Source: an uncultured Gammaproteobacteria bacterium
GTDB taxonomy: Bacteria; Pseudomonadota; Gammaproteobacteria; DRLM01
Assembly: GCA_963729605.1 (NCBI GenBank)
Contig: CAVSNY010000002.1
Span: 224,001-288,000 of the forward strand
DNA length: 64,000 nucleotides
Direction: 5' to 3'
Below are positions 56,418 to 58,987 of this stretch, one piece after another; positions within the stretch are counted from its first letter, which is position 1, and each line of letters starts with the position of its first letter. Both the position numbers and the translations under genes were made by a program. Below the pieces are notes generated by a model that made no database searches, was not told the DNA's origin, and worked only from the letters and a program-made list of their open reading frames with translations.

Positions 56418-56581
56418 ACCACGTCTACAGCGAATCATTCTCCGTTGCCGTTATTGTGGTTGCGATCACGCCGCGCTTGCGGGGGATGATTTGCGGCGGT
56501 GGTGTATCCAACGGACTCGGTCCGCGGCGATGGGCGCGCTGCGCTTGACAGTGCCCATGCCCGCGGGCAGACTTTCGAACC

Positions 56582-56683
56582 ATGTGTTTACATTCTCAAT
56601 CGGCCGTCGTCGTAATCGCACCTCGCCTGGCCCGGGCGCGAGTGTGGTGTGCGTTTATGTGGCCGGGGGATGTCTATTGTTAG
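56582..56683 (+). CDS. Putative leaderless leader peptide (33 aa)
   Basis: MCLHSQSAVVVIAPRLARARVWCAFMWPGDVYC*; ATG 8 nt after the -10 box. Confidence 0.55.
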   Translation: MCLHSQSAVVVIAPRLARARVWCAFMWPGDVYC

Positions 56684-56716
56684 TTTCGTAATACAGTCAG
56701 CGCAGCGCGCAATCCC

Positions 56717-56754
56717 AAGGCCACAGAATCCGCGTTCTGTGGCCTTTTTGTTTT
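56717..56754 (+). terminator. Intrinsic terminator 27 nt upstream of the EamA gene
   Basis: AAGGCCACAGAA-TCCGCG-TTCTGTGGCCTT followed by TTTGTTTT. Confidence 0.9.
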
Positions 56755-56781
56755 GGGCGCCGCCATGATCGGGAGGTCAGC

Positions 56782-57666
56782 GTGTCCGTGCCCGCCGCTT
56801 ATCTGGGTATTATCCTTATCTGGTCCACGACGCCGTTGGCGATCAAGTGGAGCGGAGAGGATGTCGGTTTTTTATTCGGCGTCACCGGCCGCATGTTGCT
56901 CGGCGCCGTGTTGTGTCTCGCCTTGATCCGATTGTTGCGGGTCGAGTTGCCCTGGCACCGTACCGCGATACACACCTATCTCGCCGCGGGCATCGGTATC
57001 TACGGCTCCATGCTCTGCGTGTATTGGGGCGCGCAATATATTCCTTCCGGTTTGATCGCGGTGTTGTTCGGATTGACCCCGCTGATGACCGGCGTGCTGG
57101 CGATGGCGTGGCTGGACGAGCGCAGTTTCACGCCCGGCAAACTCGCGGGGATCGCGGCGGGTTTGGCCGGGCTGGCGGTGATCTTCGGCAGCGGTGGTCA
57201 ACATGGACCGCTGGCGGTGCAAGGGATCAGTGCGGTGTTGGTGGCGGTGCTGCTGCATTCGATCAGCAGTGTGCGGGTCAAACAGATCGGCGCCGAGGTG
57301 CCGGCCTTGGCGGTGGCCGCCGGCGGCCTCCTGGTGGCGGTGCCGCTGTATCTCGTCACCTGGTGGCTGGCGGACGGGGTCATGCCGCGGCTGTTGCCGG
57401 CGCGGGCCGTGTTGTCGATTGTTTATCTCGGCGTGGTGGGATCGGCGATCGGTTTCGTCTTGTATTACTACGTGCTCAAGCGCCTCACCGCGGGGCGGGT
57501 GGCCTTGATCACCTTGGTGACGCCGGTCACCGCCTTGCTGCTCGGCAATGTCCTCAATGACGAGCGGCCCGGTCTCGAGGTGTGGGCGGGCACGGCGGTG
57601 ATTTTACTGGGGCTGGTTTTGTATCAGCGCGAAGCGAAGATGCACGCCGACAAGCCGGCGGCGTGA
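56782..57666 (+). CDS. EamA/DMT family transporter
   Basis: About 10 TM in two repeats; IWSTTPLAIKWS; YIPSGLIAVLFGLTP; YLGVVGS; GGGAGG RBS. Confidence 0.92.
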   Translation: MSVPAAYLGIILIWSTTPLAIKWSGEDVGFLFGVTGRMLLGAVLCLALIRLLRVELPWHRTAIHTYLAAGIGIYGSMLCVYWGAQYIPSGLIAVLFGLTPLMTGVLAMAWLDERSFTPGKLAGIAAGLAGLAVIFGSGGQHGPLAVQGISAVLVAVLLHSISSVRVKQIGAEVPALAVAAGGLLVAVPLYLVTWWLADGVMPRLLPARAVLSIVYLGVVGSAIGFVLYYYVLKRLTAGRVALITLVTPVTALLLGNVLNDERPGLEVWAGTAVILLGLVLYQREAKMHADKPAA

Positions 57667-57781
57667 GCACGCAGCGGCCCGGTGTCGCGCGTCACTTGCG
57701 CAGGGCGCGCGCCGTCTCGTTGTAAGCGGAGGGACAATAACTTTATACTCCGGGCACCTTTTTTATTCCGGAGCGCGCGCC

Positions 57782-58987
57782 TTGGTTAATCCTATTCCGA
57801 AACCGACCATCCAATCTTTCAATCCCGCCGTGCGTACCTTGATGGGTCCGGGTCCTTCGGATGTGCATCCACGCATACTGGCGGCCATGGCGCGGCCCAC
57901 CATCGGCCATCTCGATCCGCTGTTCGTCGATATGATGGATGAGATGAAGCTGTTATTGCAGTACGCCTTTCAAACCCGCAACGCCCTCACCATTCCCGTT
58001 TCGGCGCCGGGTTCGGCGGGCATGGAGACCTGCTTCGTCAATCTGCTGGAGCCGGGCGACAAAGTGGTGGTCTGCCAGAACGGCGTGTTCGGCGGCCGCA
58101 TGAAAGAGAATGTCGAGCGCTGCGGCGCGCTGCCCATCATGGTGGAAGATGCTTGGGGCGAACCGGTCGATCCCGAAAAATTGGAGGACGCCCTCAAGGC
58201 CCATCCCGGCGTCAAGGTCGTGGCCTTCGTCCATGCCGAGACCTCCACCGGCGCGCGGTCGGATGTGCAACAACTGGCGGAAATCGCCCGCCGTTACGAC
58301 TGCCTCACCATCGTCGATGCGGTGACCTCGCTGGGCGGCATTCCGCTCAAGGTCGATGAGTGGCAAGTGGACGCGATTTATTCCGGCACGCAGAAATGTT
58401 TGTCTTGCACGCCGGGCCTGTCGCCGGTGAGTTTCAGCGAGCGGGCGGTGGCGCGCATCAAGGCGCGCAAAACCAAAGTGCAGAGCTGGTTTTTGGATTT
58501 GAATCTGGTGATGGGGTATTGGGGCGCCAGCACCAAACGCGCCTATCACCACACCGCGCCGATCAACGCCTTGTACGGTTTACACGAGGCCTTGGTGATG
58601 TTGCAGGAAGAGGGTTTGGAGGCGGCGTGGGCGCGCCATCATCGGCATCATCTCGCGCTGCGCGCCGGGGTGGAGGCCTTGGGTCTGCGCTTCGTGGTGA
58701 AAGAAGATTATCGCCTGCCGCAGCTCAATGCGGTCACCGTGCCGGACGGGGTGGACGAGGCGGAGGTCCGCCGCCGCTTGTTGACGGAGTTCAATCTGGA
58801 GATCGGCGCGGGGCTGGGCAGCCTCGCCGGCAAGGTATGGCGCATCGGTTTGATGGGCCATGCCAGCACGCCGAAGAACGTGCTGTTCTGTTTGGCGGCG
58901 CTGGAAAAGGTATTGAGTGATCTTCAGGCGCCGATTCTCCGCGGCAAGGCGCTGGGCGCGGCGGGGGCGGCGCTGGCCGGGGGGTGA
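57782..58987 (+). CDS. Alanine-glyoxylate / serine-pyruvate aminotransferase (class V)
   Basis: LMGPGPS; VHAETSTG; DAVTSLGG; SGTQKCL; YHHTAP; WRIGLMG. Confidence 0.93.
   Translation: MVNPIPKPTIQSFNPAVRTLMGPGPSDVHPRILAAMARPTIGHLDPLFVDMMDEMKLLLQYAFQTRNALTIPVSAPGSAGMETCFVNLLEPGDKVVVCQNGVFGGRMKENVERCGALPIMVEDAWGEPVDPEKLEDALKAHPGVKVVAFVHAETSTGARSDVQQLAEIARRYDCLTIVDAVTSLGGIPLKVDEWQVDAIYSGTQKCLSCTPGLSPVSFSERAVARIKARKTKVQSWFLDLNLVMGYWGASTKRAYHHTAPINALYGLHEALVMLQEEGLEAAWARHHRHHLALRAGVEALGLRFVVKEDYRLPQLNAVTVPDGVDEAEVRRRLLTEFNLEIGAGLGSLAGKVWRIGLMGHASTPKNVLFCLAALEKVLSDLQAPILRGKALGAAGAALAGG

Follow-up and report, generated by a model that had tools for sequence, protein, structure and literature searches.

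The window analysed here, a 64,000-nucleotide stretch of a contig from an uncultured gammaproteobacterium, carries a gene for an EamA/DMT transporter and, ahead of it on the same strand, a compact leader composed of a promoter, a short open reading frame (uORF), an antiterminator and an intrinsic terminator (Table 1). A sequence-only reading had described these parts as a complete leader-peptide attenuator, and it proved accurate in its details. The TTGACA at 56545, the 17 nt to the CAGACT at 56568, the further 8 nt to the ATG at 56582 and the 33-codon peptide are all as it gave them, and both arms of its antiterminator match exactly. A consensus promoter scanner run on the window did not call the promoter at 56545-56573, whose -10 element is weak, and the promoter call therefore rests on conservation. 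Transcription would start at or just before the AUG of the uORF. The RNA runs gave contigs only; run X2 has two 151-base pieces in this region (56587-56737 and 56763-56913), a depth of 2 that is too weak for calling a start, an end or read-through.

Table 1. Parts of the leader and the transporter gene, in window coordinates
Feature	Position	Strand	Basis
-35 hexamer TTGACA, sigma70	56545..56550	+	sequence; TTGACA in 123 and TTGACN in 167 of 180 orthologous leaders
-10 hexamer CAGACT (weak, family-typical CANACT)	56568..56573	+	CAGACT and CACACT commonest among 180 leaders
leaderless uORF, 33 codons and TAG (putatively translated)	56582..56683	+	median of 32 codons across 180 leaders
segment 1 (protector); if untranslated, pairs with the 5' arm of the antiterminator	56590..56609	+	folds; family-wide 1:2 test
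W22, proposed control codon	56645..56647	+	key Trp found in 131 of 145 leaders; 94 of these have it at codons 17-20
segment 2, 5' arm of the antiterminator, codons M26-D30 including W27	56658..56671	+	folds; cognate pairing test
segment 3, common to antiterminator and terminator	56712..56725	+	folds; cognate pairing; terminator covariation
intrinsic terminator, stem 56717-56746 and U tract	56717..56754	+	terminator prediction; covariation in 62 leaders
Shine-Dalgarno GGGAGG of transporter gene	56771..56776	+	sequence
EamA/DMT 10-helix transporter, 294 aa, GTG start, unnamed subfamily	56782..57666	+	Pfam, AlphaFold, fold match

Conservation and RNA pairing of the leader

Orthologues of the transporter gene were drawn from relatives, GTDB genomes and metagenomes. 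The 289 loci gave 262 distinct upstream regions, eight of which were too short, leaving 254 that could be read. A filter for promoter, ATG, uORF and terminator was passed by 180 of these; the promoter spacer of 16-18 nt in all 180 follows from the way the filter was constructed. A leader model, R1, was built from 62 of the 180 and recovered 22 further full-length leaders among the remaining 74 loci, bringing the architecture to at least 202 of the 254 readable loci. Beside eight distant EamA genes R1 found no leader. Chromatiales, Thiohalomonadales, Sedimenticolaceae and Thiobacillus records are among the named carriers, and a profile of the EamA subfamily matched at E <= 1e-40 in 113 of the 400 genomes of the class that were searched. 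The uORF ATG lies 6-8 nt past the -10 element in 164 of the 180 leaders, and among 145 non-redundant leaders a Shine-Dalgarno-like word precedes it in only three, compared with 121 in front of the EamA start. For these two reasons the uORF is likely to be leaderless, as had been proposed. Its pN/pS is 0.54 over 29 independent close pairs. Rfam gave nothing at the gathering score in the window or in the leaders of 16 related loci, and by E-value only chance hairpin matches in the window. A literature search that covered neither subscription papers nor supplementary tables, and could thus miss a listing in a supplement, found no description of this leader. The leader represents a real, widespread and apparently undescribed family of leaderless attenuators.

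The terminator stem has 13 pairs, counting the A-U at its base, and a folding energy of -20.2 kcal/mol, and is followed by a U-rich tract to about 56754. Across the 62 leaders 93.3% of the cells are paired, 8 of 12 pairs show two-sided changes, and none of 500 shuffles scored as high; slid controls were lower as well. The antiterminator, in which segment 2 pairs with segment 3, reaches -26.8 kcal/mol including the enclosed RNA, and its duplex stands out at z = -4.9 against 60 codon shuffles of the native uORF. In 131 leaders the cognate 2:3 residual was -2.73 compared with -0.72 +/- 0.19 in GC-binned permutations; kinship inflates such cognate tests, and a control region in the 5' part of the uORF, subject to the same kinship, gave +0.13. 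Missing from the sequence-only reading was a protector. The uORF folds at -41.0 kcal/mol when untranslated, with 56590-56609 paired to 56658-73, and this 1:2 pairing holds family-wide (cognate residual -2.08 compared with -0.55 +/- 0.29 in GC-binned permutations). With a conserved 1:2 protector, 2:3 antiterminator and 3:4 terminator the trp-type geometry is complete, and together with the placement of tryptophan described below this bears out the trp/ilv-type attenuation that had been suggested. In the computed fold of the full transcript the terminator wins over the antiterminator at equilibrium, and hence antitermination must be co-transcriptional.

The proposed control codon

Two tryptophan codons are present in the uORF. 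W27 is part of the antiterminator arm, which leaves W22 as the sole candidate signal of the two. The sequence-only reading had offered cysteine or tryptophan as one possible input; tryptophan survives as this single codon, whereas cysteine does not (see Discussion). Tryptophan occurs in 137 of the 145 non-redundant leaders and is missing from eight, most of them without a linked argD-like gene, and the conserved residue lies near codon 18-20. Exactly one tryptophan is typical of codons 12-22: at least one is found there in 85% of leaders, two or more in 4%. Unlike in trpL, tandem tryptophan is rare, with a WW pair in just one of the 145. Within codons 15-24 TGG is in frame in 117 leaders, compared with 43 and 6 for the other two frames, and among in-frame NGG codons TGG (127) far exceeds CGG (25), GGG (10) and AGG (8). 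A single ancestor could have passed on such an in-frame bias. In the 29 close pairs, which are independent, tryptophan is the best-retained residue (52 of 55 comparisons, compared with 106 of 125 for arginine).

The position of the codon fits a switch. When the front of the ribosome stands 12 nt beyond the tryptophan codon, the 5' arm of the terminator is paired upstream with a probability of 0.88, which falls to 0.47 at 24 nt and to 0.35 at 30 nt. A stall at the tryptophan would therefore lead to read-through and translation to the stop codon to termination. The codon sits a median of 21 nt (IQR 15-27) ahead of the last ribosome front compatible with 2:3 pairing, compared with 9 nt for the leucine runs of leuA leaders, and because of this distance a stall one to three codons past the tryptophan would fit too.

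The scaffold in front of other genes

R1 was scanned over 150 genomes of the class, 80 chosen genomes, 41 plus 41 relatives of two carriers and 150 genomes of the phylum, sets that overlap, and full-length or strong matches away from known EamA genes were taken as leaders of other targets. One group precedes leuA genes, named by eye from sequence, in other classes of the phylum (L395, L399-L404, L406, L407, L411, L414, L415, L420, L421, L424, L426-L428, L430-L436). These are leaderless and of the leucine type. The 12 in front of type-1 leuA all contain LL runs, with CTA codons in the set, and the 13 in front of type-2 leuA are leucine-rich and all contain CGA. Leucine leader-peptide attenuators of leuA are a known class. 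The leuA leaders found here share the leaderless scaffold, a GGCCRC-type terminator and the control zone with the EamA leaders, and differ by their leucine runs and biosynthetic target; Rfam gave no match on two of them, L411 and L421.

Nine arginine-rich leaders (L339, L360, L365, L372, L378, L381, L384, L422, L425) precede operons with a PRK03715-type argD-like aminotransferase gene, often together with transglutaminase-like or GNAT genes. CGA is found in codons 9-22 of all nine, and in 80 of 157 EamA leaders. In four of five genomes checked the argD-like gene, which is presumably related to PA0530, coexists as a second copy with a better argD match, and in G423 it is the sole match over the cut-off. 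Three other argD-like loci had no leader, and the nearest neighbours of the nine leaders are mixed as to a single or a repeated origin. We know of no classical arginine attenuator on an arg gene, and a literature search found none; the argD-like leaders are candidate arginine-codon transcription attenuators. In L372 an EamA orthologue is co-transcribed with the argD-like gene, and tryptophan is lost from the leader. L342, which precedes an EamA gene of a different subfamily, contains WW.

Tryptophan within codons 9-22 is found in 140 of 157 EamA leaders, in one of nine argD-like leaders and in 3 of 12 and 3 of 13 type-1 and type-2 leuA leaders. In making this count we assigned L014 to the argD class, excluded L279 and L292 because their starts were mis-called, and kept the 15 EamA leaders from other classes without de-replication; since leaders of one target class are kin, Fisher p-values for the association overstate it. 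These differences argue that the scaffold is independent of TGG and that the codon in the zone tracks the target. Further R1 targets are secreted alpha/beta hydrolases (4), an unknown 127-aa protein (2) and transglutaminase-like genes (2). None of the hydrolase, transglutaminase-like or GNAT genes that related leaders precede has an obvious connection with tryptophan.

Several single loci were noted along the way. Leaders also stand before a GDSL hydrolase, and the hydrolase, transglutaminase-like and 127-aa set comprises L340, L341, L359, L363, L144, L361, L364, L376 and L391. L144 has tandem leaders, a full copy (706-903) before the hydrolase and an extended copy (1642-1937) before EamA. In L362/G364 a second leader directly follows EamA, and no clear gene on the same strand comes after it. 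L343 (G135:C158:2785-2973) combines a leaderless uORF of six consecutive cysteine codons with a terminator before a cysH-cysD-cysN-like operon, a candidate transcriptional cysteine attenuator in a gammaproteobacterium. L437 (G495:C4:219127-219309) matches the leader weakly, has a CGA codon and stands before an unannotated ORF of 137 aa.

The transporter and its metabolic context

The gene product matches PF00892 twice, both times over the Pfam cut-off. All NCBIfam cut-offs were missed (YddG 26.6 of 300, YedA 63.8 of 270, EamA(YdeD) 21.1 of 472), a sequence search of the PDB gave no match, and an Atlas search returned generic DMT clusters only. The AlphaFold model (pLDDT 88) is closest in fold to PDB entry 5i20 (TM 0.79), which we take to be YddG and which has the same 10-helix DMT fold at 23% identity. 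At this identity, and with 26.6 bits against a cut-off of 300, the substrate of YddG is not transferable to this transporter. The model also resembles the choline importer LicB (TM 0.74), and because the EamA fold includes this importer the term exporter is an assumption. The genes around the orthologues vary from locus to locus and are uninformative on the ligand, and no trp gene was seen, by eye, among the recurrent neighbour clusters printed for them. Downstream in the window, at 57782-58987, lies a class V aminotransferase gene with a promoter-like site of its own at 57720-57749. It follows EamA only within the genus, and on both grounds it is probably outside the attenuated unit.

A link to aromatic metabolism was found in one lineage. 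In L192 a tryptophan leader is followed by a 102-aa PF01817 chorismate-mutase/PchB-like gene and then by EamA; in L165 the same gene pair is present and the leader is displaced. Beyond these two loci, one other match was found in 400 genomes, and it has no leader. The genome of the window itself has a candidate leader peptide, MRLETTLTNTARLWRWRG, containing WRW, before trpE (G000:C2:398839-398895), and a leucine-rich candidate leader peptide before leuA (G000:C3:223941-224051). TrpR and a permease of the Mtr/TnaB type gave no match in this genome, which is 94% complete. The candidate trpE leader and the lack of a TrpR match make sensing through tryptophan codons plausible in this organism. The only DAHP synthase match in this genome is type I-beta-like. 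The type of DAHP synthase was considered as a rationale for cross-inhibition by phenylalanine or tyrosine and set aside, as type I-alpha occurs in 214 of 300 genomes irrespective of the presence of the transporter and does not discriminate. Elsewhere, L344 and L345 are leaderless uORFs with four and three consecutive tryptophan codons, before a DAHP synthase/trp cluster and trpE.

Discussion

Attenuators of the trp and leu type are recognized by a conserved short uORF, a terminator, a mutually exclusive antiterminator and protector, and the placement of control codons, and all of these were found here. We consider it very probable that the leader is a real ribosome-dependent attenuator. According to one study, trpL of E. 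coli and trpL/rnTrpL of S. meliloti likewise have a uORF with tryptophan codons, mutually exclusive protector, antiterminator and terminator, and read-through on stalling, and the S. meliloti leader is leaderless as well (PMC6614838). The present family differs from trpL in having one tryptophan and no consecutive ones, 27-37 codons, a transporter as its target and no Rfam match. With neither tandem tryptophan nor a tryptophan-biosynthesis target, it falls outside the trpL type. The trpRS1 leader of Streptomyces coelicolor reportedly works by tryptophan-codon attenuation in response to TrpRS inhibitors; its target is said to be a synthetase, here it is a transporter.

The reading that we favour, and think reasonably probable, is that the transporter is switched on when charged tRNA-Trp runs short, a state sensed through one tryptophan codon. 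A ribosome would load leaderless at the uORF AUG. With plentiful tryptophan it would cross segment 2 and run to the stop codon, 3:4 would fold, and transcription would end ahead of the transporter gene; with no translation 1:2 and 3:4 would fold, with the same outcome. With charged tRNA-Trp in short supply the ribosome would wait at W22, presumably stalled on uncharged tRNA-Trp, leaving segment 2 free; by the computed geometry 2:3 would then form before segment 4 is made, and EamA would be transcribed. A single tryptophan codon would imply a less sensitive, emergency-type switch.

The role of the transporter is the weakest step of this explanation. Given tryptophan sensing, we see an even chance that it exports an aromatic amino acid, an analogue or another metabolite whose excess starves the cell of tryptophan. 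Uptake of tryptophan or a precursor is nearly as plausible, and is somewhat less favoured than export. One paper notes that too much of one amino acid can leave the cell short of another, and it describes EamA exporters, the aromatic exporter YddG among them, as weakly expressed up to the point of need; together these statements provide a rationale for an exporter induced by tryptophan shortage (PMC11005379).

An alternative that we consider unlikely is arrest of the nascent peptide by a ligand. Here an R-x-x-x-W motif together with the substrate of the transporter would stall the ribosome at the tryptophan or one to three codons later, so that substrate excess gives read-through. The pattern of one tryptophan in codons 12-22 is in line with this, R-x-x-x-W is enriched (53 compared with 21 expected, z = 8.4) as is L..W (z = 5.6), and acidic residues and glycine are depleted in frame in the uORFs. 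The geometry tolerates a stall anywhere from W to W+3, and the idea suits an exporter and detoxification-like cargo such as the GNAT and hydrolase genes. In ligand-sensing arrest peptides such as TnaC and SpeFL, conserved residues lie at a set distance from a stall codon that is itself conserved. In the EamA leaders the R-x-x-x-W signal is weak, none of the residues W+1 to W+3 is conserved, and the distance from W to the stop varies from 5 to 22 codons. The arginine and leucine signal is explained by an Arg-Leu pair (CGM CTG) that resembles segment 3 and would pair with segment 2; it recurs in all target classes including leuA, and seems to be mainly protector strand. Plain leucine runs on the same scaffold before leuA also speak against arrest. 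Under an arrest reading the leader would be a portable leaderless module retuned repeatedly (to leucine on leuA, to Arg-CGA on the argD paralogue, to a ligand on exporters and hydrolases with a detoxifying role), a picture that we likewise find doubtful.

Comparably improbable is a general sensor of translation stress or of arginine, in which slow arginine (CGA) and other codons of the zone would signal starvation or the presence of ribosome-targeting compounds, with tryptophan as one of several inputs. Arginine is found in all 180 uORFs and in codons 12-22 of 91% of leaders, its frequency in codons 12-21 is 17.9% in frame compared with 9.7% and 8.4% out of frame, the CGA counts of the EamA and argD-like leaders agree with this idea, and EamA leaders without tryptophan exist. 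However, arginine is common in leuA leaders too and hence looks like a feature of the scaffold, and it is tryptophan that is best retained and that tracks the EamA target. Macrolide-sensing leader peptides carry a +x+ arrest motif, which is not enriched here (50 of 145 leaders compared with 57 +/- 5 in shuffles). There is a precedent in the whiB7/wblC uORF, which answers many starvations yet is tuned to one amino acid (PMC10274678). That uORF is likewise variable in sequence, with one universally enriched amino acid and antitermination on stalling, a likeness at the level of description, and it differs in being enriched in alanine and in controlling a transcription factor in mycobacteria (PMC10274678).

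It is very unlikely that TGG is kept as RNA only, as part of the 1:2 hairpin, with the uORF coupling translation to termination irrespective of any particular amino acid. Both G positions of TGG are paired when the RNA folds untranslated (0.82 and 0.87), which suggests that selection at the RNA level contributes to TGG conservation, and C follows TGG in 65%. However, the T is paired at just 0.55, partner positions range widely, from -51 to +78, TGG stands far above the other NGG codons, and the scaffold works without TGG on other targets. Sensing of valine/isoleucine or cysteine, as the sequence-only reading had proposed from the VVVI run and three cysteines of the native copy, is hardly credible in spite of an in-frame excess of valine in codons 12-21 (12.4% compared with 5.3%), since a V/I run of three or more occurs in just 14 of 145 leaders and is already broken in L004 of the same genus, and at least three cysteines in 19, with cysteine rarer in frame (4.4%) than out of frame (8.2% and 5.4%). 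Polycysteine leaderless sORFs of mycobacteria are likewise leaderless sensing uORFs; they unmask a ribosome-binding site, whereas here an intrinsic terminator is switched and cysteine is not conserved (10.1101/834739).

Tryptophan sensing would give a common uncharacterised EamA subfamily a signal that can be tested, Trp-tRNA, and narrow its substrate to tryptophan, a precursor of it or a compound that causes tryptophan starvation. If true, a leaderless uORF with one tryptophan codon is enough to operate a transcription attenuator ahead of a gene outside biosynthesis. A common scaffold carrying different codons, with the candidate arginine-codon attenuators before the argD paralogue among its forms, amounts to a natural experiment in how attenuator specificity changes.

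Finally, BLAST, a pattern scan and the leader model found no second copy of the leader in the genome of the window. Just upstream of the promoter, window positions 56435-56495 form a degenerate look-alike of the 5' half of the leader. It is missing, by eye, from same-genus loci. Its alignment score of 44, compared with 30 +/- 5 in shuffles, was reached by 2 of 500 of them for a region that was picked post hoc, and it is possibly a decayed partial duplication of the leader.
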